DNA of 64,000 nt from a virus (taxonomy: Duplodnaviria; Heunggongvirae; Uroviricota; Caudoviricetes), in the IMG/VR virus record IMGVR_UViG_3300031555_004037. One strand, given 5' to 3'. Position numbers and translations under genes: made by a program. Shown here piece by piece: positions 742 through 51,855 of the stretch. The notes beneath the pieces are model-generated. The model ran no database searches and was not told the origin of the DNA. It was given only the letters and a program-made list of their open reading frames with translations. The first letter of the stretch is position 1; the number at the start of each line of letters is the position of its first letter.

Positions 742-760
742 TAAGTGCTATTTAATTATA
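742..760 (+). promoter_or_regulatory. conserved intergenic motif TTAAGTGCTATTTAATTATA (copy 1)
   Basis: One of 6-7 copies of TTAAG(C/T)(A/G)CTATTTAATTAT, all same orientation, placed right after a stop codon and upstream of the next gene. Confidence 0.45.
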
Positions 761-815
761 CAGACAGTATAGTTTTAAATATGTAAGATATAAAAGAGAA
801 AAGGAGAAAACGAAA

Positions 816-2045
816 ATGGCAAGTGTATTAGACATTGCAAAAGGAATTAACAAAGCGTGGAAGAATGAAACTATTACATCAGGAGATGTACTTCCAGAAT
901 GTAAGAGATTTTCAATGGGAACTTTGAGTGCTGATTATGCACTTTATGGTGGTCTTCCAGAGGGAAAACTTATTGTTTATGCAGGAGAGAGTGGTTCTTG
1001 TAAGTCACTTTTGGCTTGTTTGGCTATGGCACAGTATCAGAAGGAACATCCTGATAGAACTTGTGTATATGTAGATGCCGAAGAAACACTTATTGGACAG
1101 ATTGAATGGTTTAGTAAGATGACAGGTCTTATTGTAAATGACCCTAACAAGTTTGTTCGTTATGATTGTTCTGGTAAGTCAGCAGAAGAAATTTTTGACG
1201 ATATTGTAACCATTCAGAAAGCAGATAATATTGGTATGATTATTATTGACTCTGCCCCTATGTTACTTTCACAGGCAGATATTGATAATGAGATTGCAAA
1301 GGATAATGGACAGAGAGCATCTATTGCAAAGTCAATGGGTAAATTCTTAAAGTTTATGGTCCCTGCTATTGCAAAGGCTGGAAATCCTTTACTTATTATT
1401 AATCATACTCGTGTTGCTGGAACAACATTTACAGGAGCAAAGATTTATACAGAGCCTTGTGGTTACGCATTGAATTTCTATCCTTGTATTAAGGTTAGAT
1501 TTGCAAATCGTAAGTTTACAAAGGGAGATAAGTTAGATTTATCTGCATCACAGACAGATGCCGATACTGATGGAATTTGTGCAACTTTCTCTGTTACAAA
1601 GAATAGATTAGGTGCATTAAATAGAAATGGTGCAAAGATTATCTTTAGATTTGAAACTGGTCTTGATACATTAACAGACCTTATTGAAATCATTACAAAG
1701 TATGAAATTGCAAAGAAATTAACTTCAATGACTTGGCAGTTAGTAAATCCTATTACAGGAGAAGTTTATTATGATAAGGAAACTGGCGAGGAATTAAAGT
1801 TTGCTGGTAAGCAGAAGATGATTGATTATATTCGTGACCACGATGAATTTAGAGCAGAATATGAAAAGGCTGTTTCTGATTATATCAATCATTCAAAGAG
1901 AGATATTTCACTTATTGATGAAGAAGATTTAGCACAGATTTTGGCTATGGAGAAAAATATTGAGGGTAGTGAAGAGTGGGATAGTGAAACCACAGAAACC
2001 ACAGAAGATACTACCGAAGATACAAATGGAGATAGTGAAGAGTAA
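816..2045 (+). CDS. RecA-family recombinase (RecA/UvsX-like ATPase) with acidic C-terminal tail
   Basis: Walker A-like GESGSCKS; Walker B-like MIIIDSAPML; RecA-like NPLLIINHTRV; acidic tail EEWDSETTETTEDTTEDTNGDSEE; strong RBS AAGGAGAAAACGAAAATG. Confidence 0.7.
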   Translation: MASVLDIAKGINKAWKNETITSGDVLPECKRFSMGTLSADYALYGGLPEGKLIVYAGESGSCKSLLACLAMAQYQKEHPDRTCVYVDAEETLIGQIEWFSKMTGLIVNDPNKFVRYDCSGKSAEEIFDDIVTIQKADNIGMIIIDSAPMLLSQADIDNEIAKDNGQRASIAKSMGKFLKFMVPAIAKAGNPLLIINHTRVAGTTFTGAKIYTEPCGYALNFYPCIKVRFANRKFTKGDKLDLSASQTDADTDGICATFSVTKNRLGALNRNGAKIIFRFETGLDTLTDLIEIITKYEIAKKLTSMTWQLVNPITGEVYYDKETGEELKFAGKQKMIDYIRDHDEFRAEYEKAVSDYINHSKRDISLIDEEDLAQILAMEKNIEGSEEWDSETTETTEDTTEDTNGDSEE

Positions 2046-2416
2046 TGGAATTTAGACAACATAGAGATACTGGTGGTAAAAAACCAACTCGTTTTTATTC
2101 CGATAGACAAGAAAAAACAGTTGCAAAGGCTATTAGGGGTAGACAAACCTCTAATAGTGGTGCAACACCATATGATAAGGGTGATGTAACAACTGATAAG
2201 GTTTTAGTGGAATGTAAAACAAAAACAACTGAATCTAAATCTATCTCTATTCAAAAAGAATGGTTAGATAAATTAAGAGAAGAATCTATTTTTATGAAAA
2301 AGCCATTTTATACATTAGTATTTAATTTTGGTGGAAATACAGATAATTATTATGTAATTCCTGAAAACATATATCTTCAATTACTAGAAAAGATAAATAA
2401 TGGAGAAATAGAATAA
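2045..2416 (+). CDS. PD-(D/E)xK Holliday junction resolvase-like nuclease (RecU/Hjc-like)
   Basis: SGATPYDKGDV...VLVECKTKT fits the G-PD...E-x-K resolvase pattern; TAATG start overlaps the recombinase stop. Confidence 0.5.
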   Translation: MEFRQHRDTGGKKPTRFYSDRQEKTVAKAIRGRQTSNSGATPYDKGDVTTDKVLVECKTKTTESKSISIQKEWLDKLREESIFMKKPFYTLVFNFGGNTDNYYVIPENIYLQLLEKINNGEIE

Positions 2417-3273
2417 TGTCAATGGGTATTTATAAAATAACTAATATTATAAATGGAAAATTTTATATAGGAAGTTCAGTACAAATTGAAATTAGAATTA
2501 AAAACCATTTTAAGTTATTGGAACAAAATAAACACCCAAATCCATATTTACAAAATTCGTATAATAAATATGGAAAAAATGCTTTTATTTGGTCTATTTT
2601 AGAATTAACAAATGAAGAAAATTTAAGAATAATTGAAGATAATTATATAAAATCAACTAAATGTTATGAACGAAATGTTGGATATAATATTGCTAAAGGG
2701 GCTATTAAATCTGGTAGAGATTATTTTACAGAAGAAACTATTAAAAAATTACAAAAACCAAAATCAGAATTAGCAAAACAACATATGAGAGATGCAATAC
2801 AAAAACGAGGTGGACATCACGGAGTTAATAATCCTAGATATGGAAAAACTTGGTCAAATGAGTGGAAAAAAGAACAGTCAAAAAGATTATCTAATAATCC
2901 TAAAATTTTAAACTCACCTAGATTTTTAGGACATAAACATTCAGAAAGTAGTAAACGAAAAACTAGACAAAAATTTAGAAATAATGCAATACAAAAATTA
3001 ACAAATTTTAATATAAATTTATTAAATAGTGATTGTTGGTTGTTTACTACTAATAATAGAGATAAAAATAAATCGTCAGAGGTTAAAATTTTAAAAAATA
3101 AACTTGAAATATTTATGGATGATTGTATTGCTGATAATAAATATGGTGCTTTTGTAGTACCTTTTAACAATACAGAAAAGACTAATGTATATATTGTTGA
3201 CGAGGCTACTTTTATTGAAATGAAAGAGGCATTAGAAGAAAAAAAATTCATAAGGGGGGGGAATTTAATATGA
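2416..3273 (+). CDS. GIY-YIG family homing endonuclease
   Basis: N-terminal GIYKITNIINGKFYIGSS is the canonical GIY-(10-11)-YIG motif; basic C-terminal DNA-binding-like region; free-standing between resolvase and next gene. Confidence 0.85.
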   Translation: MSMGIYKITNIINGKFYIGSSVQIEIRIKNHFKLLEQNKHPNPYLQNSYNKYGKNAFIWSILELTNEENLRIIEDNYIKSTKCYERNVGYNIAKGAIKSGRDYFTEETIKKLQKPKSELAKQHMRDAIQKRGGHHGVNNPRYGKTWSNEWKKEQSKRLSNNPKILNSPRFLGHKHSESSKRKTRQKFRNNAIQKLTNFNINLLNSDCWLFTTNNRDKNKSSEVKILKNKLEIFMDDCIADNKYGAFVVPFNNTEKTNVYIVDEATFIEMKEALEEKKFIRGGNLI

Positions 3274-5437: not shown

Positions 5438-5448
5438 TAAAAAATAAA

Positions 5449-5492
5449 TGACATATCTAGGTATTTACATAAAAAAATATCTAGGTATGTCA
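5449..5492 (+). terminator. terminator-like hairpin (14-bp stem with two G-U pairs)
   Basis: TGACATATCTAGGT ... ATCTAGGTATGTCA followed by CTTTGTCT; weak T-run. Confidence 0.4.
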
Positions 5493-5501
5493 CTTTGTCT
5501 A

Positions 5502-11454: not shown

Positions 11455-12270
11455 GTGTTTATTGTGAAATTAAATCAAAATAATATTAAACCAGAAGATA
11501 AACAATTAGCCTTAAATGTTAGAAATTATCTTGTTGCAGGAAATAGAGTTATAGGCGACCCTGGAGAAGGGTTACGACAAACTTTAATGAAATTGGAATA
11601 TGAACGAGATAATAAGAATTATGGTATTACTGATTGGAAAATGAAAGATGCTGAATTAAATCAACAAATTTCTTTAACAAAAGCAGGAATTGAAGGGGAA
11701 ATTCAATTATGTGATTATCTTTCTACTTTAATTAAGTATGATGATAAATTAAATGGATTAGTAGCATTTGCAAGTTTATCTTATGATTTTGGAGATGGTG
11801 TAAATAAAGATTATATTCCTGATACTGATACATTATTAGTATATGGTAGACACGCATTAGTTATAGATGCCAAAAATCTAAAAACAAAACCTAATCAATG
11901 TCTTATGATAGTTGAGGGTGGATTTGTAATTGACGCTGATAAAGAAAAAGAACTTATATCTGTAAATCCGTCTACTCATATATGGAGAAAAGTAATGGAA
12001 GATGCAAATATTCAGTTAGATTCTATTGATGGATATGTATGTATTGTAAATGATACAGAAATTGAAATTATTAGAAATGAATATTGGTACGAATGTAATA
12101 CAAAACTCATCCATATAAGTGAATTAAAAGATATTTTAGAAGATTGGGTACAAGGAAAAGATAACACATTATATTTAGATATGTTGACCGAAATTTCAAA
12201 GGCACAAATTAAAAAAGAGAAAAATATTTCCTTTGATATTGACGCAATTAAAAGAAAATTTAATGTATAA
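11455..12270 (+). CDS. hypothetical protein, possible PD-(D/E)xK nuclease
   Basis: DTDTLLVYGRHALVIDAKNLK resembles a D...(D/E)xK motif; weak. Confidence 0.3.
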   Translation: MFIVKLNQNNIKPEDKQLALNVRNYLVAGNRVIGDPGEGLRQTLMKLEYERDNKNYGITDWKMKDAELNQQISLTKAGIEGEIQLCDYLSTLIKYDDKLNGLVAFASLSYDFGDGVNKDYIPDTDTLLVYGRHALVIDAKNLKTKPNQCLMIVEGGFVIDADKEKELISVNPSTHIWRKVMEDANIQLDSIDGYVCIVNDTEIEIIRNEYWYECNTKLIHISELKDILEDWVQGKDNTLYLDMLTEISKAQIKKEKNISFDIDAIKRKFNV

Positions 12271-12376: not shown

Positions 12377-12922
12377 ATGAACAGAAATGATGAATTTGAA
12401 AAGATTAAGATTACAAAAGCAAGTACAAATAAGGCGTGTACAAATGTTTATTATGACTCATTTGGAATCGAAAAGGTGCGTTTCTCAAATGCCTCATATA
12501 CGGATAAGACAAGCATTGATTGTTACCTCGACTTTGAGGATATAGCCTTACTTGCTACTGATGCTGCAAGTGGTAGGATTTTTAAGGAATTAGAATCTGG
12601 ACCTAAAACTATTACAATGGGTGGTAGCAAGTCCTCAAAGAGATTTGACGGTAAACCTGAATCAAGAGTAATGTCACTCGGTAAGTCAGGAGATAAGATT
12701 TTCATTAATATGACCGCTGGTAAGGGTAAGATTGGTGATACTGGTCTTATTGTACCTGATGGACAACCTGATAAGAAAATTTCAGTTGCTATGCCGATTG
12801 ACAAGTTCCGTTCTATGATTATTTACACAAATAATTGGGTAAATGGCTATCTTGCTCATATGACTACTCGTATGGTTCGTGAGGCAGAAGAGGCTCGTAA
12901 GAACGCAACAAATAAAGAATAA
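12377..12922 (+). CDS. hypothetical protein; isolated, probably highly expressed unit with GC-richer codons
   Basis: 181 aa; own promoter, strong RBS AAAGGAGATTAAAATTATG, strong downstream terminator; locally higher GC (a long antisense ORF appears only here). Confidence 0.5.
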   Translation: MNRNDEFEKIKITKASTNKACTNVYYDSFGIEKVRFSNASYTDKTSIDCYLDFEDIALLATDAASGRIFKELESGPKTITMGGSKSSKRFDGKPESRVMSLGKSGDKIFINMTAGKGKIGDTGLIVPDGQPDKKISVAMPIDKFRSMIIYTNNWVNGYLAHMTTRMVREAEEARKNATNKE

Positions 12923-13012: not shown

Positions 13013-13032
13013 ATAAATTTTTATAAAACTGT

Positions 13033-13060
13033 ATACAAACAGATTAAAAAGTGTTATAAT
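13033..13060 (+). promoter_or_regulatory. sigma-A-like promoter (ATACAA -16- TGtTATAAT)
   Basis: -35-like ATACAA 13033-13038; extended -10 GTGTTATAAT 13051-13060; upstream of RNAP beta-like gene. Confidence 0.45.
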
Positions 13061-13096: not shown

Positions 13097-15319
13097 ATGA
13101 CAATTCCAGAGTTATTTGAAAAAGAATTAGCCTTTTGGACTTCCGTAAATCAGTCATTTTTAGGTGTTACACCTATTGATGATACTTTAGATTTTGCAGA
13201 TATTCAAAAGGGTATTGATGAAGATTGTGCAAAATATTGGAATACGGATAATCCTTGTAAATTGGCTCGTAATTTGAATAATGGTCTTCTTAATAAAGAC
13301 GCAAGTAAGCAGACAAAACACTCTTATCAGTTAAAATTAAACTTTTATAATATGTGTATTGATGTGTATGGAGAATATGGGGATAAATTATTAAAAATTT
13401 GTGCCATTCCCACTCCTTGTAATGATTTATGTTGGATTATCAATAAATCTCATTATGTTACAAGAGTTACTGCAATTAAAGATTATTATGGTATAGTTGG
13501 TAAGCGTGATTTTGAAACTGTAAATGGAGAGGGTTGGATTTATAATATCCATAAAGATAGTTTTGAATGTATTGTTAAGAAAGATGAATATAAATTTGAA
13601 CCTACTATTGATGAAATTTATAGTAATCATTTATCAACTCGTTCAAGATTATTATTACAGTCTTGTCTTGGAGATGAAGAATTATCACTTGAAACATTTA
13701 CAAAGGCTTTAAGAAAATTACCTATCTTTGCTAGTGATAGTATTTTTAATTATAAGTTTGCTAGAATGGAATATTTTGAAGATATTGTACTTAATTCTAA
13801 CAAATATGCACAGCCTACAAAGAAGATTTTATTAGGTATTAACACAATTATTGCGTCCAAATCAAAACAGTATACAAAAACGGGAGAAAGAATTGAAGGT
13901 TGTTTAGTGCGTTCTGATAGTAAGATTTTCGCATTAGAGAACTTTAGAACTTGTGTAAATATTTATAAGGGAGAATCAGATTTCCAACCTGCATTTACTT
14001 ATGCAGATACTAATGGTTTTTTTGACTCCTTTAAAACTGTTACTTCAAAATCTGCTGGTCGTCAGAGATTACTTTTGGATAATGTAGTAATTAAGGGTGG
14101 TATGCTTTGGATTGTTGATGATGATGGTACTATGCACAATATGTATGAATATATGGATATGCCACAAAATAAGAGATTATCTTGTTTATCAGAATCTCCT
14201 TTCTGTAATAATGATAAGCCAAAGAGAATTATGATGAACGCAAAAATGACATCACAAGCAGTACCTCTTGTTGGAGAATCAGATGATTTAACTCATCGTA
14301 TTAAGGCTAGAGTAGGATTTACTGATATTGAGGGTTATACATCAGCAGATTCTATTATTATTAGTGAGTCTTTTGCAAAGAAATTAAGAACATTTGAATC
14401 AACTATTTTGTTCTTAAATAAGAAATCAAATTTATTTACTTTGTTAAATAATAATCCTATTTTCAATATAGAAACTTTAAAGGCTATTTTCCCTAATAAG
14501 AATGAAGCAATACTTTCTTCTTATGAGAATTTTCATATTGAAAGAATTGACGATGTTGATGTAAATAATGTTAGAGTATTTCTTGCTTGGGATATTCCTT
14601 TTAGACTTGGAGATAAAATTACAAATCTTCACGGTGCTAAAGGTACAGTAGGACTTATTCTTCCAGACGATAAAATGCCTACATTATTAAATAAAGTGGG
14701 TAATATGGATGCAGGTCCACTTGAAATTATTATTTCTGGTTTCTCTACAATTCGTAGAGGTTCACTTGGTCAGATTTTTGAGGCTTGGGCTTTAGCAAGT
14801 GGTATTGAATTAGATGGTAATGATTATATTGCAAATATGATTACTAAATATAAAGACCAAATGAAAGAATTTAGTGATAATTCAGTTGTAGAATACAATG
14901 GAGTAAAGAAAATTATTCCTGTTGGTATCAATAGTATTATGAGATTATACCATCACGCATCTACTCATATTTCTTGTTCTTCTGCTGATTTTGCTTATAA
15001 GAAGACTTTAAAAATGGGAGAAATGGAAAAATTAAATCTTGTGGCAAATGATTGTCCTAATATTCTTAAAGAATTAGGTATTAGAAGTATTAGTAAGTAT
15101 ATTGCATCTCATAGACATATTAATAATATGGAAAGAACGAGAGAATTACCGAAAAATACACATTTATCATTACAGTTTGTTGAGATTTTAAAATCTATGG
15201 GATATGAATTAATTGTAGATGATAAAAATTCTGTTGATTATTCAGATTTAGATGATGTCGATATTGCAAACTTTAATACTATTATAAAAGGAGAAGATGA
15301 CAATGAAGATAACGATTAA
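13097..15319 (+). CDS. multisubunit RNA polymerase beta-like subunit (C-terminal catalytic part)
   Basis: NLHGAKGTVGLILPDDKMP ~ beta GRHGNKGVISKINPIEDMP; SLGQIFEAWALASG ~ IGQILETHLGMAA; GEMEKLNL ~ GEMEVWAL. Confidence 0.75.
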   Translation: MTIPELFEKELAFWTSVNQSFLGVTPIDDTLDFADIQKGIDEDCAKYWNTDNPCKLARNLNNGLLNKDASKQTKHSYQLKLNFYNMCIDVYGEYGDKLLKICAIPTPCNDLCWIINKSHYVTRVTAIKDYYGIVGKRDFETVNGEGWIYNIHKDSFECIVKKDEYKFEPTIDEIYSNHLSTRSRLLLQSCLGDEELSLETFTKALRKLPIFASDSIFNYKFARMEYFEDIVLNSNKYAQPTKKILLGINTIIASKSKQYTKTGERIEGCLVRSDSKIFALENFRTCVNIYKGESDFQPAFTYADTNGFFDSFKTVTSKSAGRQRLLLDNVVIKGGMLWIVDDDGTMHNMYEYMDMPQNKRLSCLSESPFCNNDKPKRIMMNAKMTSQAVPLVGESDDLTHRIKARVGFTDIEGYTSADSIIISESFAKKLRTFESTILFLNKKSNLFTLLNNNPIFNIETLKAIFPNKNEAILSSYENFHIERIDDVDVNNVRVFLAWDIPFRLGDKITNLHGAKGTVGLILPDDKMPTLLNKVGNMDAGPLEIIISGFSTIRRGSLGQIFEAWALASGIELDGNDYIANMITKYKDQMKEFSDNSVVEYNGVKKIIPVGINSIMRLYHHASTHISCSSADFAYKKTLKMGEMEKLNLVANDCPNILKELGIRSISKYIASHRHINNMERTRELPKNTHLSLQFVEILKSMGYELIVDDKNSVDYSDLDDVDIANFNTIIKGEDDNEDND

Positions 15320-16547
15320 ACAAATTGAAATTGTGGAAGACCCAATGAATGAAGTTACTTCAGATAAGATTTTTATGCCTCGTAAGATTAAAGACGAGAA
15401 TAATAATTACTTATATGACAAAAATGGTATCTTCTCTGAAAGAATTTTTGGTAAATTCAATAAATGTACTTGTGGTAATTTAACAAGACCTGGAATTTGT
15501 CCAGATTGTGATTGTAGAGTTTTGGATAGAAAGAATATTCCAAATTTCTATGTAAAATTCAAATTTGATTTACCTAATAGAGTAATTGATTATTCTGTTA
15601 TTGAAGATAAGAAGAATATTGCTTTAATTAATGATTTAATCAATTTTAGAGGTTTCTTATATGACGGAAATTATGTAGAATTTAATCTTAAAGAAGATAT
15701 GTCAATTTATGATGAAGATAAAATTATCTTTGGTAAAGACGCTGTTTTAAGTACAGGTTTTGTAACAGAAGAGTGGTATGAAGAAAATGTACATAGACTT
15801 ATTAGTATTCCTCATACATCATTTAGAAAGATTACTTTCCAAAATGAGAAATACATTGTAGGTCAATTAAATACTCTCTATATCAATATTATTCGTTTAA
15901 ATAATAAATATGACAAATATAAGAAAGATGGTAAATTAAATTATCTTAATGAATTAAATCTTCGTCATATTGTATGTAGAGAATTAGAATCATTATATGA
16001 AGCATTATTTATGATTTTAGCAAAGAATAAGCGTAATGTAATCACTAATGAGTTACAAGGTCAGCCAGAAACAGGTATGATTAGAGCAGTTATGACTAAT
16101 AATTTTAGTCTTGATGAAGATATTTTACTTATTGGTAGTTATTTTATTGAAACTCTTTATCCTAGATTATATAATCAACATACAGATAAAGATGGAAATA
16201 CAGATATTGATGAAATCAATCGTATTTTAAGAGAAGAAGAGTATTTAGTATTATTTAACAGACAGCCTACTATTGGTGCTAAATCTATTATTGCTATGAA
16301 ACCTATATTCTCTAAATTAGATACAGAGCAGTTCGTTATTCAAGCAAATCCTATTGTTTATGACGGTCTTGCTGCCGATGTAGATGGCGATACATTAAAT
16401 GTTATTGCTTTATATACAAAGGAATCTTGTGAAGAGGCTAGAAAGTTATTAGCAAGTAATAATTATATTGAGGGTTCTAATGCGTCTATTAGAAATGGTA
16501 TGCTTGAAGAGTTTGATTATGTTCAAACTATTTTAGAGGGGGAATAA
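15297..16547 (+). CDS. multisubunit RNA polymerase beta-prime-like subunit, N-terminal part
   Basis: Zinc finger CTCGN...CPDCDC; FNRQPTIGAKSI...ANPIVYDGLAADVDGDTLNV ~ LLNRAPTLHR...NADFDGDQMAV (divergent catalytic Asp triad). Confidence 0.7.
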   Translation: MTMKITIKQIEIVEDPMNEVTSDKIFMPRKIKDENNNYLYDKNGIFSERIFGKFNKCTCGNLTRPGICPDCDCRVLDRKNIPNFYVKFKFDLPNRVIDYSVIEDKKNIALINDLINFRGFLYDGNYVEFNLKEDMSIYDEDKIIFGKDAVLSTGFVTEEWYEENVHRLISIPHTSFRKITFQNEKYIVGQLNTLYINIIRLNNKYDKYKKDGKLNYLNELNLRHIVCRELESLYEALFMILAKNKRNVITNELQGQPETGMIRAVMTNNFSLDEDILLIGSYFIETLYPRLYNQHTDKDGNTDIDEINRILREEEYLVLFNRQPTIGAKSIIAMKPIFSKLDTEQFVIQANPIVYDGLAADVDGDTLNVIALYTKESCEEARKLLASNNYIEGSNASIRNGMLEEFDYVQTILEGE

Positions 16548-16550
16548 TTT

Positions 16551-16964
16551 ATGGCAGAAGAAAATAATAAACCAACAAAACCTAAAAAGTCTAAAAGTAA
16601 ATCTAATATTAAATTAGATAATGGTACTATTATATTTTTTGCAGTTTTAATTATTGCCTTAATTGGTTTTACCATTTTAGTTTTAGTACAAGAATTGAAA
16701 ACAACTTATGTAGTTGATTTTGGAGAAGAAATCAATTCTACTGTTGAAATCAATGAAGATAGAACAAAAATTGATTTAATAGTCAATGTTCAAGGTGCTG
16801 AAACTAAACAACACGGTACATTAACTTTAATTGAAGATAATGAATATAAAGCAGAATTAAAAGTTGGAGAAGATACAACTGAAACTGTTACTGTTATTAT
16901 AGAAGAAAATCAATTAAAACTAATGTATGATGATGGAACAGAAATAATCTATAAGGAGAAATAG
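16551..16964 (+). CDS. small membrane protein (Lys-rich N-terminus, one TM) embedded in RNAP operon
   Basis: KPTKPKKSKSKSN then IIFFAVLIIALIGFTILVLV. Confidence 0.45.
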   Translation: MAEENNKPTKPKKSKSKSNIKLDNGTIIFFAVLIIALIGFTILVLVQELKTTYVVDFGEEINSTVEINEDRTKIDLIVNVQGAETKQHGTLTLIEDNEYKAELKVGEDTTETVTVIIEENQLKLMYDDGTEIIYKEK

Positions 16965-16965
16965 T

Positions 16966-17937
16966 ATGCGTAGCAGAAAAGAATTTGTAGAAAAATATCA
17001 CGAAATTGGAGAGTCAATGTTTGAACATTGTACTATTCCAACTGTTTCTGATTTTGCTAATGCTTTTGTAGATAATAACACAGAAGCAATGGATAAAATC
17101 ACAAAAATTACTTCATATACAGGTAATACAGATGATATTATTAAATCTGTTCAAAGAAGAAATAACAATTATTCAGAACAAGAGTCAAAGAAATTTATGC
17201 AATCTGTTATTGCAGCAAATGTAACTGATATTACTGAATCTGGTTATTTCTATAAAAAACTCATTTCTAGTTGTGACGATATGATTATCGAAATTGACGA
17301 TTGTGGTAGTGATGGTGTTGAATTTAAAATGCCTGTAGACGAAGATACATTTGAATATAAGATTAGAAATCATTGGGTTATGGAACTTAATAAATATGTA
17401 GAAGATTATTCCGAATTACCTAAAAAGGGAACAATTCGTGTTAGAAATTTCCTTTCTTGTAAGCACGGAATTAGAAAATTCTGTAAGAAATGTGCTGGTT
17501 TATATAGACGTTCTTATGATACAGAATTTACACCAAAACATATTGGTATTTATTCTACACTTATGATTACTGAACACGCAACACAAGCATCTTTGGATAG
17601 TATGAATAAGGGTACTGCTGAACCTATCAATGTTATTATTGAGCGTAGTAAGATGGACAAGTCTATTAAAACTATTGAAGATGCAAAAATTGAAATGTCT
17701 AAAATTATAGACAATATTGGTAATGTTGGTGTTGAATCAAGATTTTATGAGATTGCCTTATTATCAAGATGGAGAGATGGAAAGTTTTGTGCTTTACAGA
17801 CTTCATTTTTAAAGCAACCTGATTTATTAGGGGCATTTATTTATAAACCAGGTAAAACAACTTTTAGTAATTTATTACAAGGTGGAACATTTGAAGCAAA
17901 CTCCACAAAAACTAAAATTGCATTTGATAAATATTAA
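16966..17937 (+). CDS. possible RNAP beta-prime C-terminal-like fragment (trigger-loop region) / RNAP-associated subunit
   Basis: IYSTLMITEHATQASLDSMNKGTAEP loosely resembles beta-prime [24 protein letters not shown]; Cys cluster CKHGIRKFCKKCAG; tentative. Confidence 0.3.
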   Translation: MRSRKEFVEKYHEIGESMFEHCTIPTVSDFANAFVDNNTEAMDKITKITSYTGNTDDIIKSVQRRNNNYSEQESKKFMQSVIAANVTDITESGYFYKKLISSCDDMIIEIDDCGSDGVEFKMPVDEDTFEYKIRNHWVMELNKYVEDYSELPKKGTIRVRNFLSCKHGIRKFCKKCAGLYRRSYDTEFTPKHIGIYSTLMITEHATQASLDSMNKGTAEPINVIIERSKMDKSIKTIEDAKIEMSKIIDNIGNVGVESRFYEIALLSRWRDGKFCALQTSFLKQPDLLGAFIYKPGKTTFSNLLQGGTFEANSTKTKIAFDKY

Positions 17938-17946: not shown

Positions 17947-17993
17947 AAGCAAGGTAAGATATAAATAAGTGTCTTGCCTTGCTTGTATTTGTA
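17947..17993 (+). terminator. rho-independent terminator (13-bp stem, one G-U)
   Basis: AAGCAAGGTAAGA ... TCTTGCCTTGCTT then GTATTTGT. Confidence 0.5.
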
Positions 17994-18010: not shown

Positions 18011-19045
18011 ATGGAAATTGTTACAGAAAATGGAAAAGATTATTTAGTTACTTATGTGGCTAAAATTGATAATAGCACTATTGACGCTAATGCTTTATTT
18101 ACAGATGTATCAGAAGCAGTAGCAAAAATTTTAAAAGCATATAATAATAAATTTAAAGCAAGAAATTTAGCCATTTATAAGGGATATGGCTCGAATTTAC
18201 AGTCTTTATTAAATAGATATAGTGGAGATTATTTTTCTCCGTCATTTATGAAAAATTATGTTACAAACCCTGCATTATCACTTATGTCAAATTTCTTTGT
18301 AGAACAAGCAAATGACGCAACTGCTATTGGTACAACATTCCATAAGGTATTAGAGGATTATTATAATTTACCACCAGAAGAAAGACATAGAGATAAATTA
18401 TGGGAATTAGAAAAACTTGCATTAACAGATGGTCAAGATAAAGAAATTCTTGACGAATATATAAAAGGTTATTATGATATTAAAGATTATTTACATCCTC
18501 GTTCAGAATTAGACGATACAAAGTTAAAGTGTGTTACTGAACATAGGGGTAGAATTGAAAATTTACACGCAAAATCTATTGATTATACTGTTCCTTGTGC
18601 TGTATCATATGTTGCTGATAGAGTAGATTATCGTGGGGATGATGTAATTATTCTCGATTATAAAACAGGACATCCAGAACCATCGTCAGTTACATTTGAT
18701 GGATATTTAGGTTCTATGATTTTATATAAATGGGCTATGGAACAAGAATTAAATACAACTATCAATAAAGGCTTTTTAATTTGTCCTGGTAATACAGGAA
18801 CTAAACGATATATGGAATTAGATTATTCTATTGAAAATGAAAAGAAGATGGCAGAAAAGATTGATAGATTTTATAGGTCATTTATGAGAGATAATAGAAG
18901 TAGAGAATATACATTCACAAATGATGGTTATTTTACTACTGATGATGCTAGAAATTATAAAGCAATTATGAATGATAATACAATTTGGATGAGTAAGATG
19001 CCTTTAAAGATTTATATAGGAGAACACGATGAATCTTATTTGTAA
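18011..19045 (+). CDS. PD-(D/E)xK nuclease of the RecB/Cas4 family
   Basis: VADRVDYRGDDVIILDYKTGH matches RecB-nuclease motifs II-III (D ... hhDYKTG). Confidence 0.5.
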   Translation: MEIVTENGKDYLVTYVAKIDNSTIDANALFTDVSEAVAKILKAYNNKFKARNLAIYKGYGSNLQSLLNRYSGDYFSPSFMKNYVTNPALSLMSNFFVEQANDATAIGTTFHKVLEDYYNLPPEERHRDKLWELEKLALTDGQDKEILDEYIKGYYDIKDYLHPRSELDDTKLKCVTEHRGRIENLHAKSIDYTVPCAVSYVADRVDYRGDDVIILDYKTGHPEPSSVTFDGYLGSMILYKWAMEQELNTTINKGFLICPGNTGTKRYMELDYSIENEKKMAEKIDRFYRSFMRDNRSREYTFTNDGYFTTDDARNYKAIMNDNTIWMSKMPLKIYIGEHDESYL

Positions 19046-19400
19046 TATTATATTAGTAATAAGTGCAATAGCAATTATTATATATGATTACAAAATTAAA
19101 AAAATTCCTATGTGGCTACTTATTATAAATTATATAAGTATATGCTTATTATTAAATAAGTGGCTACTATTTGGAATTGTATTTATACTATTGGCAAAAC
19201 TAAAAGATTTTCCTATTGATTTATTATATGTTTTGATTATGTGCTATTTAATTATAATAGTAAATAATTATTTTAGTTTACTAGGAATAATGATACTGTT
19301 ATTACATATACTAATATCAAAGGAAGAAAAAATTAGTTTTATGGTATCATTAGAGATAGCAATAGTTTTAGAAATTTTAATAAAGGAGATGGTAGTATGA
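19029..19400 (+). CDS. small polytopic membrane protein
   Basis: 123 aa, at least 4 predicted TM segments. Confidence 0.45.
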   Translation: MNLICNIILVISAIAIIIYDYKIKKIPMWLLIINYISICLLLNKWLLFGIVFILLAKLKDFPIDLLYVLIMCYLIIIVNNYFSLLGIMILLLHILISKEEKISFMVSLEIAIVLEILIKEMVV

Positions 19401-23459: not shown

Positions 23460-23467
23460 AAAGAAAA

Positions 23468-23848: not shown

Positions 23849-23888
23849 AATAATATACTCCTTTCATATTTTATTATAATTAAATAGA

Positions 23889-32842: not shown

Positions 32843-34651
32843 ATGTGGAAGAAAATTAGAGAATGGTTTAAAAAGAATAGGGGTTTAATTATTATTAGTT
32901 TTTTAGCCTCTATTATTACAATAACAATTTTACAAAATCGTCAATTATCTCAACAGCCTGAAATTAAAACCATTTCATATCAAGAATTTGAACAACTTGT
33001 AGAAGAAGAAAAAGTAGATAGTATCTATTATAATAAATCAAATGAATGGATGACTATTACTTTATTTAATGTTGAATCAAAAACATTAGATGCAAAAGAG
33101 AGATTAAATTATCAAGGATATACAAATGAAGATAAAAGAAATGTATCATATCCAGCATATGAAGAATTTAGGCACGATATGTTGAGTAATAATATAAATA
33201 TGATAATTGTAGACCCAAAAGTGTCTTTTATTGAAAAAGCATTATCAATCGTTTCTTTAATGTTTCCGTTATTATGGGTTTTTATTATTATGAGAATGTT
33301 AATTAGTTCTACTCAAGGAAATGTTAAAAGAAAAGAAATTATACAAACAAGTAATGTAAAATTTACTGATATTATTGGTCACGAAGAGATATTAGAAGAT
33401 GTTAAATTCATTACTGAACTTATTAAAAACCCTAAACTTGGAGATGATATAGGGGCAAAAGTTCCTAAAGGTATTTTATTAAGTGGAGAACCAGGTACAG
33501 GAAAAACTCTTATTGCAAAAGCAATCGCAGGAGAGGCAGGAGTACCATTCTTATATCAAAATGCGTCAAGTTTTATAGATAGATTTGTCGGTATGGGTGC
33601 AAAAAATGTTCGTGATTTATTTAAACTTGCAAAAGAAAATGCCCCTTGTGTATTATTTATAGATGAAATTGACGCTATTGGTGGAAATAGAAATAATGGT
33701 AAGGGTACATCTGAAAATGACCAAACAATAAATGCGTTATTACAAGAAATGGATGGTTTTACAGGTAGAGAGGGAATTTTTATAATTGCTGCTACTAATA
33801 GACCTGATATTCTTGATAGTGCTTTGGTTAGAGCAGGACGATTTGATAGACAAATTATTGTATCTGCCCCTAGAGATTGGGGAGTTAGAAAAGATTTATT
33901 TGAACATTATCTAAATAAATTTAAAGTTTTAGATGATGTAAATATAGTAAATTTAAGTAAACAAACAGCAGGATTTACTGGTGCTGATATTGCTGCAATT
34001 TGTAATGAGGCTAGTATTATTGCAGTTATGCAAGAAAAAGACGCTATTGATATGGATTGTATTGAAGAGGCTATTGATAAGAAAATCTTTAAAGGAAATC
34101 GTGCTAAAAAAGAGAAATACTTTGAAGATAAAAAGATTGTTGCTTATCACGAATCTGGACACGCTGTTATGAGTTATTTATTAGGAGAACCTATTGCTAG
34201 AGCAAGTATTCAATCTACTGTTTCTGGTGTTGGTGGTGTAGTATTTAATGAAGATAAAGATAGTGTATTTCAAACTAATATTGACTTTGAGAATAGAGTT
34301 TTGATATGCTATGCTGGTAGAGCATCAGAAGAAATTAAATTCAACTCTGTTACAACTGGTGCTTCTAATGATATTACACAAGCAACAAATGTTATGATGA
34401 ACTACATAGAAAAATTTGGTTTTGATAAAGAATTTGGTTTATTAGATATTGGTGTTTTAAGTAAGGAACATTTAATCAATAGTGAAGAAATTACTAATAA
34501 ATTAAGTAATATGTCTAGGAATTTATATGAAAAAAGTTTATCATTATTAAAAGATAACTATAAATTAGTAGAAACTTTGGCTAATAAATTATTAGATGTT
34601 GGAACATTATCTGGTGACGAAATTACAGAATTATTTAATAACTGTAATTAA
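32843..34651 (+). CDS. ftsH: FtsH-family membrane AAA+ zinc metalloprotease
   Basis: Two N-terminal TM helices; Walker A GEPGTGKT; Walker B VLFIDEIDAIG; second region of homology ATNRPDILDSALVRAGRFDRQ; HEXXH HESGHAV. Confidence 0.9.
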   Translation: MWKKIREWFKKNRGLIIISFLASIITITILQNRQLSQQPEIKTISYQEFEQLVEEEKVDSIYYNKSNEWMTITLFNVESKTLDAKERLNYQGYTNEDKRNVSYPAYEEFRHDMLSNNINMIIVDPKVSFIEKALSIVSLMFPLLWVFIIMRMLISSTQGNVKRKEIIQTSNVKFTDIIGHEEILEDVKFITELIKNPKLGDDIGAKVPKGILLSGEPGTGKTLIAKAIAGEAGVPFLYQNASSFIDRFVGMGAKNVRDLFKLAKENAPCVLFIDEIDAIGGNRNNGKGTSENDQTINALLQEMDGFTGREGIFIIAATNRPDILDSALVRAGRFDRQIIVSAPRDWGVRKDLFEHYLNKFKVLDDVNIVNLSKQTAGFTGADIAAICNEASIIAVMQEKDAIDMDCIEEAIDKKIFKGNRAKKEKYFEDKKIVAYHESGHAVMSYLLGEPIARASIQSTVSGVGGVVFNEDKDSVFQTNIDFENRVLICYAGRASEEIKFNSVTTGASNDITQATNVMMNYIEKFGFDKEFGLLDIGVLSKEHLINSEEITNKLSNMSRNLYEKSLSLLKDNYKLVETLANKLLDVGTLSGDEITELFNNCN

Positions 34652-34691
34652 AATAAAATAAAATAAAATAAAATAAAATAAAATAAAATAA
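34648..34691. repeat. (AAAAT)n pentanucleotide microsatellite, about 8-9 units
   Basis: TAAAATAAAATAAAAT... fills the spacer between the ftsH stop and the RBS of the giant surface-protein gene. Confidence 0.9.
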
Positions 34692-34708
34692 GAAAGGGAA
34701 GGTATTTT

Positions 34709-46911: not shown

Positions 46912-46958
46912 AAGAACTACAATATCTTTTTATAGATTATTGTAGTTCTTATTTTTTA
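46912..46958 (+). terminator. rho-independent terminator (13-bp perfect stem)
   Basis: AAGAACTACAATA...TATTGTAGTTCTT then ATTTTTT. Confidence 0.75.
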
Positions 46959-46961: not shown

Positions 46962-46980
46962 TTAAGGACTATTTAATAAT
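46962..46980 (+). promoter_or_regulatory. conserved intergenic motif TTAAGGACTATTTAATAAT (copy 6)
   Basis: Immediately after the terminator; 130 bp upstream of the 47109 gene. Confidence 0.4.
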
Positions 46981-47108
46981 AAGAATATTAAAAATGAAAA
47001 AAAGTTACCTTTATTTAGATAATAAATAATAATATAATTATCATAAATACTACAATATAAATAATATGTTTGCAAAATTAAAAAAATATATAGAAAGGAA
47101 ATTAAACA

Positions 47109-48335
47109 ATGTATAATAAGACAAAAAAACATTTAGAAGACACAATGAAATTTGTTTTAATTTATAGTTATTGTACTGATAAAGAAGACGGACAAATTGC
47201 ATTAAATCAAAATGCCATTGGAAAATATTTAGGTCTTACTAAAATGACAATGATTAGACATTTCTCAAAGATGAGAGAATTAGGTTTAATTTCCATTAAA
47301 GATAAAACAAAATATACAACTAATAGTAATTCAAAGTGGTATTCAAATTTATATTCTGTAAATCAAGACGGAATAAATGAATACATTAAAAATAAGACTA
47401 ACTATGATGTATTAGATAACTTTGAAGAAGAATCAAAAGTATATTATGAATTTATGACATTGATTAAGACTTTATATAATGAGAAAAGATTATCCGAAAT
47501 GTCAGAAGAAGAAAAGGAATTAGAAATCAAGAAGATTGAAAAGAGAGAAAAGAGAGATAAAGAGAAATTAGATAATTTAAAGAATGAGAATAAGTATTAT
47601 TTAGATTTATTAAATGAAGTAAACAATGATATTATTCCTATGAATTATCTTAATGAAAATAGAAAAAGATTAACAAATGCGTTATGTGTAACCAAAAATC
47701 CAGAAATTCCTGGTCACGAAAATGATATGGTTAGAAAGAAAATGTTATCAAATTTCTTTAATACAGATAAAAATATAGTAGAATTTGATACAAATGCTAG
47801 TATTTATAGATTATCCTATGCTTTAGGAAATAATAAATTAGCAAACCATACAGACGATATATATAGATTAGTATTTAACGAATGTAATTTTAATGTATAT
47901 TGGGCAAAAACATTTAGAACTAATTTTAAAGAATTACTAATGCCTATATATATGAAAGAGGGTTCTATTGAATATACTTGTTTTGAATATAAAAAACAGC
48001 GTAGATGGAAATATTTTATCTCAAAAGAAATGGAAAAGAGATATAATTTCTATAAATATTTTGAAGATACCTTACAAATGGATTTAAAGGATATTTTAAC
48101 AACTGTTCAAAAGGCAATGCACAAGGTATTTAATATGGATAAATTCTATCAATCAAATATATTTATTCACGAATCTAATTTACATATTTTAATGTTAAAG
48201 AGATTTAAGGAATTAAATATTCAAACCATTGATGTATATGATGGATTTTATTTTATTGAGGGAACTATGACACAAGAATTATATAATGAAATTTATGATG
48301 ACGCATTAAATTCATTATTAGAAAATATGAGATAA
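47109..48335 (+). CDS. HTH-domain protein (possible DNA-binding regulator or initiator)
   Basis: N-terminal wHTH-like IGKYLGLTKMTMIRHFSKMRELGLISI; Lys/Glu-rich coiled coil. Confidence 0.35.
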   Translation: MYNKTKKHLEDTMKFVLIYSYCTDKEDGQIALNQNAIGKYLGLTKMTMIRHFSKMRELGLISIKDKTKYTTNSNSKWYSNLYSVNQDGINEYIKNKTNYDVLDNFEEESKVYYEFMTLIKTLYNEKRLSEMSEEEKELEIKKIEKREKRDKEKLDNLKNENKYYLDLLNEVNNDIIPMNYLNENRKRLTNALCVTKNPEIPGHENDMVRKKMLSNFFNTDKNIVEFDTNASIYRLSYALGNNKLANHTDDIYRLVFNECNFNVYWAKTFRTNFKELLMPIYMKEGSIEYTCFEYKKQRRWKYFISKEMEKRYNFYKYFEDTLQMDLKDILTTVQKAMHKVFNMDKFYQSNIFIHESNLHILMLKRFKELNIQTIDVYDGFYFIEGTMTQELYNEIYDDALNSLLENMR

Positions 48336-49320: not shown

Positions 49321-49352
49321 AGAGATGATTTTTAAGAAAGGAAATTAAAGTA

Positions 49353-51833
49353 ATGTTAGATTTAATTGCAAAAAACAAAGAAATGTTAGATGCAAAAGCA
49401 TATAATATAGCAGACACTCGTTTAATGATGAGAATTGCAAGTCTTAAAACTATAAATGATTATGATTTGTATTTAATTGCGTGTTGTTTATGTAATTATG
49501 ATATTGAAGAAAAATCAGATGCAAGAGAACTTCGTATGGAATATTTCCTTAAAACTAATAATGGTTCTATTGTTGGATTTGAACACGGAGAATCTGATTA
49601 TGGTATTGTTGGAAAATCTGATATTAAATGTACTAATACAGGTAATGTAAATAAATTTGGTTTATATGAATATGAAATCAATGTAAATAATAAAGACCTA
49701 GTTTCTGATTTATGGGAAAAGAAACCAAAGGATTGTCTTAAATATGTGGATAACAAAACCTATGAAGATAAACTTATTGTTTCTATTAGTAAATCTCAAT
49801 TAGATAATTTTATGGCTATGTTAGATGAATTAGTTATTGATTATGAAATTTCAGATTTACAAAAGGGTTTAATTTATACAAATAAATCAGGTAATGAATT
49901 GATTGATATTTCTACCTTAGATTTACCTTTTGAACCATATCAATATCAAATAGAAGACGCTAAAAGATTAGTAAGTAAAAAAAGAGCATTACTAGGACAC
50001 GATATGGGCTGTGTATCAGGAAATAGTATAGTTCGTATTAAAGAAAGAGGAAAAAAAGCAACACGAGAAATAACCGTTTCTAATTTATTTAATTTGTTTG
50101 AAGAAGATAATACTATTCAAATTAAATGTTTAGTAAATGGAAGATTTGCTTATATGCCTATCAAAGCAGTAATTGATAAGGGTGTTCGTGATACTATTAG
50201 ATTAGTTACAAAAGATACTAGACTTGAATGTACTACTGACCACGAAATTTATACAGAAAAGGGTTGGGTAGAATCAAAAGATTTACAAGTTGGAGATTAT
50301 ATTGTTACAAATGAATTTGGAATTGATATACCTAATCATTTGATTAATTCGATTAAAAACAATATTGATGTTAATAAAACAATTAATGAAAACTGTGATT
50401 ATATATATACATCAAAAGTAGGTATTTCAGAAATTATTAGCATAGAAACTTGTGATACTCAACAAGTTTATGATATTGCTATTGACGATGTAGAAATTCA
50501 TAATTTTGTTTGTAATAATATTGTTGTTCATAATTGTGGAAAGACCTTAATTTCAATTTTAATTGGTCAAAGTTTAGATATGCCTAAATTAGTAATTTGT
50601 CCAGAGTCATTAAGATTAAATTGGTTAAGAGAAATTAAACAAGTTAAAAATGACGCAGATGTACAAATTTTATTAAGTAATGAAACACCTCATTTTGGAG
50701 AAGATTGGACAATAGTTGGTTATCAAACTGCAAGTAAATTTATTGATAATTTAATGAAATTTGAGTGTATCTTTGTAGATGAATGTCACAACTGTAAGGC
50801 TGTAAATAATTGGGGAAAACCGTCAAGTAAGAGAGCCGATGCAGTAATTACATTGGCAAATAATGCAGAGTATTGTTATTTATTATCTGGTACTCCAATG
50901 CCATCACATAATAAAGATTTATTCAATATTCTTAAAATGTTAAAATGTGAAGCATTTGATTTTAATAATAAATGGGCATTTAAGAATTATGCAGATAAAT
51001 ATTGTGACCCTAAAGAAACATATTTTGGTATGGACTATTCTGGTAATAGTAATTCAGATATGTTACACGGATTATTAAATAAACTAATGATACGAAGATT
51101 AAAGAAAGATGTATTACCACATTTAACAAAGCAAAGACAGTTTATTCCTATTGCACCAAAATTCAAAAAGGAATATATGGATATTGAAAAAAGATTATAT
51201 TTTCCTGAACCAGACGATACTTATATGGGATTGGCTATGACAGGAAGAAAATTATCTAGTCAATATAAAGTACAAACTGCTATTGAATTAGCAGAATCTT
51301 TAATTAATTCTGATGAAAGTGTAGTTATTGTTACAAACTTTATTGAAACAGCAGATATATTAAAAAATCATTTTAAAGATAAGGCTTGTGAAATTCGTGG
51401 TGGTATGAGTGATAAAGATAAGCAAAAAGCCATTGATGATTTTCAAAGTAAAAAGAAAACTGTATGTATATTAAATATGATGGCTGGTGGTGTTGGTATT
51501 ACTTTAACAGCAGCACATACAATGATAATGGTTGATTATGCTTGGTTGCCATCAGATATGACACAGGTAGAAGATAGAATTTGTCGTAGTGGTCAGACAG
51601 AGAATTGTATGATTTATTATATTTATTGTGAAAATTCTATTTTAGATAATATATTTATTGAGATGATTTCTGATAAATCAGCAAATATAGACGCAGTTGT
51701 AGATAATGTAGAAAACACATTTAATTTAAGTGAGGAAAAGTTAGCCAATTCAACTTATATTGATTTACTTAAATCAAAGATTAAAGAAACTAAACCAAAG
51801 GCAAAGCGTGGCAGAAAAAAGAAGACTGAATAA
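49353..51833 (+). CDS. SNF2/Rad54-family helicase with a mini-intein inside the Walker A motif
   Basis: Host motif DMG|CGKT split by the intein; DExH box VDECHNCK; motif VI QVEDRICRSGQT; remaining helicase motifs intact. Confidence 0.8.
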   Translation: MLDLIAKNKEMLDAKAYNIADTRLMMRIASLKTINDYDLYLIACCLCNYDIEEKSDARELRMEYFLKTNNGSIVGFEHGESDYGIVGKSDIKCTNTGNVNKFGLYEYEINVNNKDLVSDLWEKKPKDCLKYVDNKTYEDKLIVSISKSQLDNFMAMLDELVIDYEISDLQKGLIYTNKSGNELIDISTLDLPFEPYQYQIEDAKRLVSKKRALLGHDMGCVSGNSIVRIKERGKKATREITVSNLFNLFEEDNTIQIKCLVNGRFAYMPIKAVIDKGVRDTIRLVTKDTRLECTTDHEIYTEKGWVESKDLQVGDYIVTNEFGIDIPNHLINSIKNNIDVNKTINENCDYIYTSKVGISEIISIETCDTQQVYDIAIDDVEIHNFVCNNIVVHNCGKTLISILIGQSLDMPKLVICPESLRLNWLREIKQVKNDADVQILLSNETPHFGEDWTIVGYQTASKFIDNLMKFECIFVDECHNCKAVNNWGKPSSKRADAVITLANNAEYCYLLSGTPMPSHNKDLFNILKMLKCEAFDFNNKWAFKNYADKYCDPKETYFGMDYSGNSNSDMLHGLLNKLMIRRLKKDVLPHLTKQRQFIPIAPKFKKEYMDIEKRLYFPEPDDTYMGLAMTGRKLSSQYKVQTAIELAESLINSDESVVIVTNFIETADILKNHFKDKACEIRGGMSDKDKQKAIDDFQSKKKTVCILNMMAGGVGITLTAAHTMIMVDYAWLPSDMTQVEDRICRSGQTENCMIYYIYCENSILDNIFIEMISDKSANIDAVVDNVENTFNLSEEKLANSTYIDLLKSKIKETKPKAKRGRKKKTE
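50010..50534 (+). mobile_element. mini-intein (175 aa, no endonuclease domain) in the SNF2 helicase P-loop
   Basis: Begins CVSGNSIV, block B TTDHEIYT, ends VYDIAIDDVEIHNFVCNNIVVHN followed by +1 Cys (CGKT); excision would restore DMGCGKT. Confidence 0.75.
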
Positions 51834-51834
51834 T

Positions 51835-51855
51835 GTAGTGCTATTTAATTATAAT
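51835..51855 (+). promoter_or_regulatory. conserved intergenic motif GTAGTGCTATTTAATTATAAT (copy 5, AGTGCT core)
   Basis: 2 nt after the SNF2 stop, abutting the RBS of the next gene. Confidence 0.45.

Follow-up and report, generated by a model that had tools for sequence, protein, structure and literature searches.

What marks the starts of transcription in a huge phage that encodes its own multisubunit RNA polymerase (RNAP)? The question is raised by a stretch of 64,000 nucleotides (nt) from the uncultivated tailed phage (Caudoviricetes) filed in IMG/VR as IMGVR_UViG_3300031555_004037, hereafter the window, in which a short AT-rich sequence, here called motif A, recurs between the genes. We find that motif A is real and occurs far beyond chance expectation. 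A promoter is its best explanation on positional and comparative grounds, and probably the correct one, while it is plausible that the phage's own RNAP reads it. The window is less than one fifth of a genome that is probably larger than 300 kb; its base composition is ~27% guanine plus cytosine (GC) with a strong positive GC skew, and all of its genes except three lie on the + strand.

Motif A is an enriched, oriented intergenic element

The invariant 9-mer core of motif A, CTATTTAAT, occurs six times in the 3,123 nt of intergenic DNA of the window, against 0.09 expected (Poisson P = 7e-10), which bears out the view of a first-pass annotation that this is a recurring intergenic motif and not a chance AT-rich word. 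Counted over whole strands, the core is found 7 times on the + strand (1.7 expected) and 5 times on the - strand (3.8 expected). The full 19-mer with up to three mismatches gave 11 matches in the window versus 1.06 expected. In an unbiased comparison of intergenic with coding DNA, CTATTTAA was among the most enriched intergenic 8-mers, 47-fold over coding DNA, and ranked alongside the words of the sigma-A -10, the sigma-A -35 and the ribosome-binding site (RBS). With a matrix derived exclusively from 27 sites of relatives, the window yielded 10 matches scoring 8 bits or more, every one on the + strand, compared with 0.67 in simulations. The copies and near-copies in the window are as follows.

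741-763, + strand (core 748-756): motif A copy, 24.4 bits; starts 1 nt past the stop of open reading frame (ORF) 404-739 and ends 59 nt 5' of the UvsX/RecA-like gene 816-2045
19237-19259, + strand: motif A copy, 16.3 bits; within hydrophobic ORF 19029-19400, 144 nt 5' of the gene for a 79-amino-acid membrane protein (19397-19636)
23873-23895, - strand (core 23879-23887): motif A core without the upstream AAG; between the minus-strand genes 23932-24456 and 23501-23848, 4 nt past a terminator hairpin; an RBS follows 15 nt later
24863-24885, + strand: motif A copy; in the divergent intergenic region 5' of gyrB (24947-26860), with a sigma-A-like promoter 8 nt downstream
44146-44168, + strand: motif A copy, 19.1 bits; overlaps the TAA stop of gene 42268-44148
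45905-45927, + strand: motif A copy, 10.6 bits; overlaps the TAA stop of gene 45471-45908
46962-46984, + strand: motif A copy, 17.7 bits; directly past terminator 46914-46957 and 131 nt 5' of gene 47109-48335 (408 amino acids, weak Crp-type helix-turn-helix match below the Pfam cut-off)
51834-51856, + strand: motif A copy, 19.3 bits; begins immediately 3' of the stop codon of the Snf2 helicase gene with the intein; gene 51870-52718 follows, its AAGGAG RBS starting 7 nt past the core
57441-57463, + strand: doubtful near-copy with core CTATTTAAC (one core mismatch), 11.8 bits; within the ligase C-terminal gene 56915-57706, probably a chance match
39896-39929, + strand: perfect 14-bp hairpin followed by a sigma-A-like promoter, 3' of the 1727-amino-acid gene; not a motif copy

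The six exact or near matches at 741, 24863, 44146, 45905, 46962 and 51834 had all been listed before, the first and last of them 1 nt off (742 and 51835). A seventh, supposedly degenerate copy at 39896 had to be dropped, as it has two mismatches in an otherwise invariant core and makes up the 5' arm of a 14-bp hairpin (-17.7 kcal/mol, z = -9.2), and the copies at 19237 (+) and 23873-23895 (-) had been missed. The placement of all copies on the + strand holds for the 10 matrix matches and fails for the minus-strand core, which occupies the only intergenic gap in the only minus-strand gene cluster. Likewise, four of the six listed copies do lie directly after a stop codon, as had been claimed, the exceptions being 24863, which stands in a divergent region without an upstream + strand gene, and 46962, which is 72 nt past a stop with a terminator in between. 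The copy at 19237 is retained in a close strain of the window phage (L264; L numbers denote retrieved loci from related contigs); it probably represents an internal promoter, though with less certainty than the copies between genes. A further copy lies ~1.9 kb upstream of the window, on contigs carrying an identical copy of the protein encoded at 404-739 (L150).

Alignment of 9 window-lineage and 27 relative copies gives a consensus block AAG-N-R-CTATTTAAT-WATA of ~20 nt, with an invariant AT-rich core, no -35 element, and no conservation beyond about -8 or +5. The alternation of AGCACT with its reverse complement AGTGCT, noted previously as the core of the motif, is genuine within the window; relatives have GAGC, AGGC or AGAC at this position (e.g. 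GAAGAG, GAAAGG), and it is a variable, lineage-specific flank (the N-R of the consensus) rather than a core. A palindromic AGYRCT binding site was rejected because relatives do not retain it, and a sigma-54-like GCAC element because they lack GCAC and there is no TTGC. A Chi- or KOPS-like polar word was rejected as well, motif A being confined to intergenic DNA. Motif regions show no intrinsic fold (z = -1.4 and 0.1) and no Rfam match, and a literature search for the CTATTTAAT string returned nothing relevant among the top-ranked matches.

Placement and conservation point to a signal for the downstream gene

Every copy with full context points with the genes, including the minus-strand copy, which points with its minus-strand cluster, and in relatives the strand of the match always equals gene orientation. 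Minus-strand ORFs in relatives were considered as further tests of orientation and set aside, since they look spurious. At the strand-switch junctions of the window, the divergent region 5' of gyrB holds a copy facing gyrB, and the convergent junction at 23460-23500 holds a hairpin only. After strong terminators, no conserved element other than motif A precedes the next gene (46962, 23879 on the - strand, L005, L006, L009, L012 and L107), and in several tight gaps motif A and the RBS are the sole elements (51834-51869, 36 nt; L008 13192; L013 13315; L004 5926; L129 7100). Because the RBS can begin as little as 7 nt past the core, the start site of a promoter placed here must lie within ~7 nt of the core. 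At core+7, 9/9 window-lineage and 20/27 relative copies (29/36 overall) carry a purine, matching the 'consensus-(6N)-purine +1' geometry of the virion-RNAP promoters of phiKZ and AR9. Intergenic copies in the window stand 20-131 nt from the start codon.

Relatives in IMG/VR share 60-83% amino-acid identity with the window proteins and lie on contigs of 9-467 kb; identical proteins were found on contigs from several metagenomes. At the orthologous uvsX site, a 13-nt sequence, CTATTTAATTATA, is identical in the window, L018 and L019, while the remaining intergenic region is unalignable. Motif A together with a sigma-A-like promoter stands upstream of gyrB in L012, and the orthologues of the 79-amino-acid gene in L001 and L002 have the motif 60-68 nt upstream. 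The relatives' form of the motif gave 44 matches in all of IMG/VR, 15 of them in six related huge-phage contigs (27-467 kb) and the rest essentially singletons; on one 394-kb contig, the retrieved copies span 35-382 kb in a single orientation, which is that of the genes. The window-type 16-mer gave one match per contig, except for three tandem matches in one unrelated contig, a pattern taken to mean that IMG/VR lacks the lineage of the window itself. To judge from these searches, motif A is lineage-specific, belonging to one sub-clade of low-GC, uncultivated huge phages. Cultured phages gave no match to a 20-kb Megablast query, and genes 47109, 49353 (Snf2) and 42268 used as queries found no relatives among viral or metagenome contigs.

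Motif A, sigma-A-like promoters and motif B replace one another

Two further intergenic signals were recognised in the window and its relatives: sigma-A-like promoters and a second short motif, motif B.

13032-13060, + strand: sigma-A-like promoter TATACA-N17-TGTTATAAT, 5' of the phage RNAP gene cluster
24887-24915, + strand: sigma-A-like promoter TATACA-N17-TGTTATAAT, in tandem with motif A copy 24863
776-795, + strand: motif B, AAAWT-GTAAGATATAA, located 3' of motif A and 5' of the uvsX RBS

The window and relatives together hold 44 strong TTTACA-N17-TGnTATAAT sites, some of them 5' of RNAP genes, and these are presumably read by the host RNAP. Together with the AAGGAG ribosome-binding sites, the abundance of these promoters points to a Firmicute-type host. 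They are unusually uniform (TTTACA or TATACA, N17, TGnTATAAT) across phages with 45-80% protein identity; examples in the window are found at 13032, 24887, 40443, 44459, 48929, 54896 and 56855.

Motif A is distinct from this class, as the first-pass annotation had held. Nothing is conserved 17 nt upstream of it, and among the hexamers TTTAAT, TATTTA and the following WATAWW none keeps both the A at -11 and the T at -7; with no -35 and no such hexamer, motif A is not a sigma-A promoter. An extended -10 or a TATAAT just past the core was rejected in the same way, the T at -7 not being conserved. The T4 middle-promoter type (a MotA box with a sigma-70 -10) fails on a spacing of 8-24 nt to the nearest sigma-A-like element and on most copies having no such element.

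In relatives, motif B lies right against the RBS of various genes, uvsX and RNAP beta among them (L014-L017; L001, L002 and L005 at ~9925; L201 1991; L150 2914); in the window it is present at 776-795 and 17954-17964, the latter copy lying within a terminator hairpin. It is probably another phage-specific promoter class, with the start site inside the motif. Comparison of orthologous leaders shows that the three signals can stand at the same site. Upstream of uvsX there is motif A in L018 and L019, motif B in L014-L017, and both in the window. Upstream of RNAP beta there is either a sigma-A-like promoter (window, L262 and L264) or motif B (L001, L002 and L005), and in L006 and L263 the gene lies within an operon led by motif A and a sigma-A-like promoter. 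Since motif A thus replaces a recognisable promoter at the same site, it is most simply a promoter itself.

A divergent split RNAP is the candidate reader

The earlier statement that the window encodes its own multisubunit RNAP is confirmed, with the genes arranged as follows.

13097-17937, + strand: divergent split multisubunit RNAP genes, candidate reader of motif A
13097-15319, + strand: RNAP beta-like gene of the split cluster
15297-16547, + strand: RNAP beta'-N-like gene; best phage match the beta' subunit of the AR9 non-virion RNAP (nvRNAP), 7S00_d, E = 9e-6
between the beta'-N-like and beta'-C-like genes, + strand: 137-amino-acid ORF of the split cluster
16966-17937, + strand: RNAP beta'-C-like gene of the split cluster
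12377-12922, + strand: 181-amino-acid Whirly-fold (single-stranded nucleic-acid-binding) protein, directly upstream of the RNAP beta-like gene in every relative

The RNAP beta-like protein gave only remote matches in tblastn against cultured phages. One such cluster was seen in the window, itself a fraction of the genome. The 181-amino-acid protein, which is 98% identical in the close strain L264, has 85 homologues, of which many come from contigs 100-510 kb in length; its structural model (predicted local distance difference test score, pLDDT, 91.9) is of the Whirly-fold single-strand-binding type, with Pur-alpha as the best Foldseek match. Speculatively, this protein could be an accessory or specificity factor of the RNAP. 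A conserved neighbour of 271 amino acids is encoded at 11455-12270. Three unknown proteins, considered as potential specificity factors, had no significant match in a sequence search of the Protein Data Bank (PDB), and the RNAP-adjacent ORFs found nothing in PHROGs. We think it unlikely that motif A belongs to a wholly new transcription system, in which the Whirly-fold protein would direct a minimal split RNAP, a third of the promoters would be terminator-gated and release ~45-60-nt RNAs, and host sigma-A transcription would run in parallel.

Hairpins adjoin many copies of motif A

Terminator-like hairpins flank several of the copies in the window.

44180-44223, + strand: 15-bp hairpin with T-run, -20.3 kcal/mol, z = -5.3; 19 nt past the motif core, directly before the Shine-Dalgarno sequence (SD) at 44224 and the ATG at 44237, terminator-like and within the putative leader
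45932-45971, + strand: hairpin with T-run, -15.3 kcal/mol, z = -4.1; 11 nt past the motif core and directly before the SD and then the ATG of gene 45991-46263
46914-46957, + strand: intrinsic-terminator-like hairpin with T-run, -17.6 kcal/mol, z = -6.5; ends 4 nt before motif copy 46962

The motif and an extended leader (ATAGTATGAATGTGAAAAAT; TATA-ATAGTR...GAAAAAT-hairpin) precede several non-orthologous small genes, and such motif/hairpin cassettes cluster among small ORFs, at 44.1-47.1 kb of the window and as three copies in 11 kb of L081. Some of the terminator hairpins form a family with a common stem base, AAATGAC...GTCATTT, and a variable interior (5447-5495, 44180-44223 and three sites in L081).

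Weighing the promoter against its rivals

Several observations weigh against a promoter, or at least against a simple one read by the phage RNAP. A hairpin with a T-run lies within 8-23 nt downstream of 14 of the ~40 motif copies (about a third) and upstream of seven, whereas at sigma-A-like promoters it is downstream in 2 cases and upstream in 10 (Fisher P = 0.01), and a promoter followed immediately by a terminator therefore needs an extra assumption, either attenuation or read-through. It will not do to suppose that the phage RNAP simply ignores hairpins, as the RNAPs of AR9 and phiKZ stop at intrinsic terminators (PMC5312081, PMC10914365). Motif B alone precedes the RNAP gene in L001, L002 and L005, which makes a simple cascade hard to draw. 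L007 and L262, distant relatives that have the RNAP cluster, showed only sigma-A-like promoters and no motif A or B in ~20 kb each, so the RNAP and motif A are not demonstrably coupled. Moreover, part of the relative loci was retrieved by the motif match itself, an ascertainment bias, and gene calls are ORF-based and terminator calls heuristic.

The hairpins would be accommodated if motif A were a sequence-specific signal at which the phage RNAP terminates or pauses, alongside the hairpin terminators of the other polymerase and possibly paired with the hairpin that follows it. This reading, to which we assign a low probability, agrees with the position of most copies within a few nt of an upstream stop, with the order of motif and hairpin being unfixed, unlike that at sigma-A-like promoters, and with the uvsX leader of the window, where the order stop, motif A, motif B, RBS can be read as a terminator and then a promoter. 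Nearness to stops does not discriminate, however, as in the intergenic sequences sigma-A-like promoters, too, are seen to begin 5-11 nt past a stop, and the reading is weakened by the copy at 24863, which has no co-oriented gene upstream, and by the genes that it would leave with a terminator and no promoter (47109, 23848 on the - strand, 51870, L008 13192 and L129 7100). It also runs against the convergent junction at 23460-23500, where there is a hairpin and no motif, and against the AT-rich, TATA-like composition of the element, typical of melting elements and not of known termination signals. Motif A as an intrinsic terminator in its own right was rejected: there is no fold in the element, and the hairpins are separate and variable neighbours. 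About equally improbable is a binding or loading site for a regulator (an activator, a repressor or a lambda Q-like antiterminator) acting on neighbouring promoters or terminators, the alternative raised in the first-pass annotation. Motif A does adjoin sigma-A-like promoters in at least four cases and hairpin terminators in about half of its copies, yet the distance to the nearest sigma-A-like promoter varies between 8 and 24 nt, most copies have no such promoter, and the asymmetry and strict orientation of the motif are not those of a typical dimeric operator. MotA-like appropriation does not fit either, since the T at -7 that a sigma-A -10 requires is not conserved in the hexamer following the core.

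That motif A acts in the mRNA, as CUAUUUAAU, in the manner of a processing site, a stability element or a translational operator, is the least probable of the readings considered. The motif is strand-specific, lies in untranslated regions and is sometimes very near the RBS, but seven copies follow strong terminators and would be missing from most upstream transcripts, 14 precede terminators and would not be on the downstream mRNA, the distance to the start codon is anything but constant, and the element has neither intrinsic structure nor an Rfam match. A promoter for the host RNAP with an alternative host or phage sigma-like factor, -10-only and of the T4 gp55 type, would account for the single AT-rich element of ~8-9 bp with no -35, which is the architecture of T4 late promoters; the phage clearly uses host-type promoters too, and it has several T4-like replication and recombination genes. 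We nevertheless consider it unlikely, as the motif sequence differs from TATAAATA and Pfam and PHROGs revealed no sigma- or gp55-like gene among the ~70 ORFs of the window, a weak argument given that the window is so small a part of the genome. Motif A also differs from the Firmicute sigma consensus sequences with which it was compared.

We return to the promoter. That motif A exists, is enriched, and is conserved in orientation, placement and sequence is observed directly; its promoter function, start site and reader, and any attenuation, we infer from sequence and position. Motif A would be a compact, orientation-dependent promoter without a -35, recognised by a phage-specified transcription apparatus and not by the host sigma-A holoenzyme; the most likely reader would be the divergent split RNAP, perhaps aided by an accessory specificity factor. 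Melting and recognition around -10 would fall to the near-invariant AT-rich 9-mer, and transcription would start ~6-8 nt downstream, usually at a purine. Such a promoter would work beside the sigma-A-like promoters, for which host RNAP is the presumed reader, and beside the RBS-abutting GTAAGATATAA. At copies with a downstream hairpin, either premature termination would produce RNAs of ~45-60 nt or read-through would be conditional, and the hairpins may thus be conditional promoter-proximal terminators. What the promoter reading does not carry with it is the 'middle/late' label proposed earlier: the downstream genes seen belong to replication, recombination, nucleotide metabolism, membrane functions or small unknowns, and as none is recognisably structural, the label is unsupported.

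Comparison with known phage promoters

The sequence of motif A is new, and the kind of element, a compact phage-specific promoter in an RNAP-encoding huge phage, is already known. Early promoters read by the virion RNAPs of phiKZ and AR9 consist of a long, near-invariant AT-rich element with a purine +1 after 6N, in AR9 AAATATATATTAT-(6N)-G+1, and direct early transcription that does not depend on protein synthesis; the late promoters of the non-virion RNAPs of phiKZ-like phages are short and include the start site (PMC5312081, PMC7598289). By analogy, the form of motif A is typical of the early virion-RNAP promoters rather than the late ones, and it is the RBS-abutting motif B that looks more like the late type. 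The phiKZ and AR9 early promoters share with motif A a near-invariant AT-rich element (10-13 nt) without a -35, discovery by over-representation alone, co-oriented positions upstream of genes, intolerance of core mismatches, a purine ~7 nt downstream, and possible tandem arrangement with a second promoter class. The tandem motif A and sigma-A-like promoters, with their variable spacing of 8-24 nt, parallel the continuously expressed AR9 genes, which carry both early and late promoters (PMC5312081). Split beta/beta' RNAP subunits are likewise encoded in both cases. The differences are that the promoter sequences are unrelated, that phiKZ and AR9 are independent of the host RNAP while the window phage, with its many strong sigma-A-like promoters, one of them before the RNAP genes, probably is not, and that phiKZ and AR9 have two RNAP sets, virion and non-virion, whereas a second, virion-packaged set was not seen in the window, a genome fraction.

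T4 late promoters (TATAAATA, dependent on gp55/gp33/gp45) resemble motif A in their single AT-rich -10-type element, the lack of a -35 and the tight placement in a compact genome; they differ in sequence, in that the window ORFs include no gp55-like gene, and in the genes that follow, those after motif A being neither structural nor late. For the motif/hairpin cassettes there are two parallels. The PeSL cassettes of T4-like phages are composite promoter/terminator units (PMC2839356, PMC4122927) which, like those of motif A, combine a conserved promoter word and a stem-loop terminator in one short intergenic region, cluster among small ORFs of unknown function and place the same leader before non-orthologous genes; in PeSL the promoters are early ones of the sigma-70 class, and the stem-loop lies between the hexamers or over them, while motif A is not sigma-A-like and its hairpin is downstream or upstream. 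PeSL cassettes also bring about recombination and gene shuffling, seen as mini-circles and as indels between close strains; for motif A, the one leader shared by non-orthologous genes would be a hint of the kind. By analogy, it is possible that the motif A cassettes are PeSL-like composite units travelling with small ORFs. In phiKZ, promoter-proximal terminators in the 5' untranslated region yield abundant short RNAs (PMC10914365), and as in the motif A cassettes, an intrinsic terminator lies within tens of nt of the promoter and ahead of the next SD. The short RNAs of phiKZ are documented, while their motif A counterpart is a prediction.

Other features of the window

The phage-type replication and recombination set of the window comprises a UvsX/RecA-like recombinase, a DnaB-like helicase, a primase, a DnaC-like loader, gyrase B and A, an NAD-dependent ligase, thymidine kinase, and GIY-YIG and HNH nucleases; further genes encode the intein-containing Snf2 helicase and a 1727-amino-acid protein with Ig-like domains. 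Rfam and tRNA scans of the window found nothing. The GIY-YIG endonuclease gene at 2416-3273 is present in the window and L150 and missing in the otherwise collinear L264, consistent with a mobile homing-endonuclease gene. The Snf2-family helicase gene (49353-51833) has its intein at residues 242-394 (Pfam Intein_splicing). The NAD-dependent DNA ligase is split into an ORF with the adenylation and OB domains (54959-56053) and one with the Zn-finger, HhH and BRCT domains (56915-57706); a nucleotidyltransferase/HEPN pair (56060-56849) is inserted between the two, and transcription of the second half would start anew from a sigma-A-like promoter at 56855.

SecY, a flotillin/SPFH-family protein and the FtsH protease are encoded consecutively at 29023-30378, 31251-32780 and 32843-34651, a trio of membrane-biogenesis and quality-control genes that is unusual in a phage; literature searches on SecY/FtsH in huge phages and on rumen jumbo phages returned nothing relevant. 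In a relative, motif A and a hairpin precede the FtsH gene (L013 3018). Immediately 5' of the RBS of the gene for the 1727-amino-acid Ig-domain protein there is a tandem repeat of (TAAAA), ~7x, at 34652-34692. The region 57776-60698 holds a clear type II/IV secretion (T2SSE) ATPase together with a weak TcpE-like membrane protein and a weak VirB4/TrbE-like protein, both below the Pfam cut-off, that is, secretion- or pilus-type genes in a phage context.

Significance for transcription in huge phages

Transcription in uncultivated huge phages is essentially unknown, and motif A bears on this gap. The three separable intergenic signals (sigma-A-like, CTATTTAAT and GTAAGATATAA) offer a sequence handle for predicting operons and regulatory classes in the clade, and motif A supplies concrete templates on which the phage RNAP can be assayed in vitro, as well as a key with which to search gut or rumen metatranscriptomes for 5' ends. 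Were the termination reading true, a multisubunit RNAP would here have a sequence-specific terminator, which is a rarity. Because many strong host-type promoters are present, one of them before the phage's own RNAP genes, our analysis suggests that this RNAP-encoding huge phage runs a mixed programme of host and phage transcription, and that, unlike phiKZ and AR9, it apparently still uses the host RNAP, for its own RNAP genes included.

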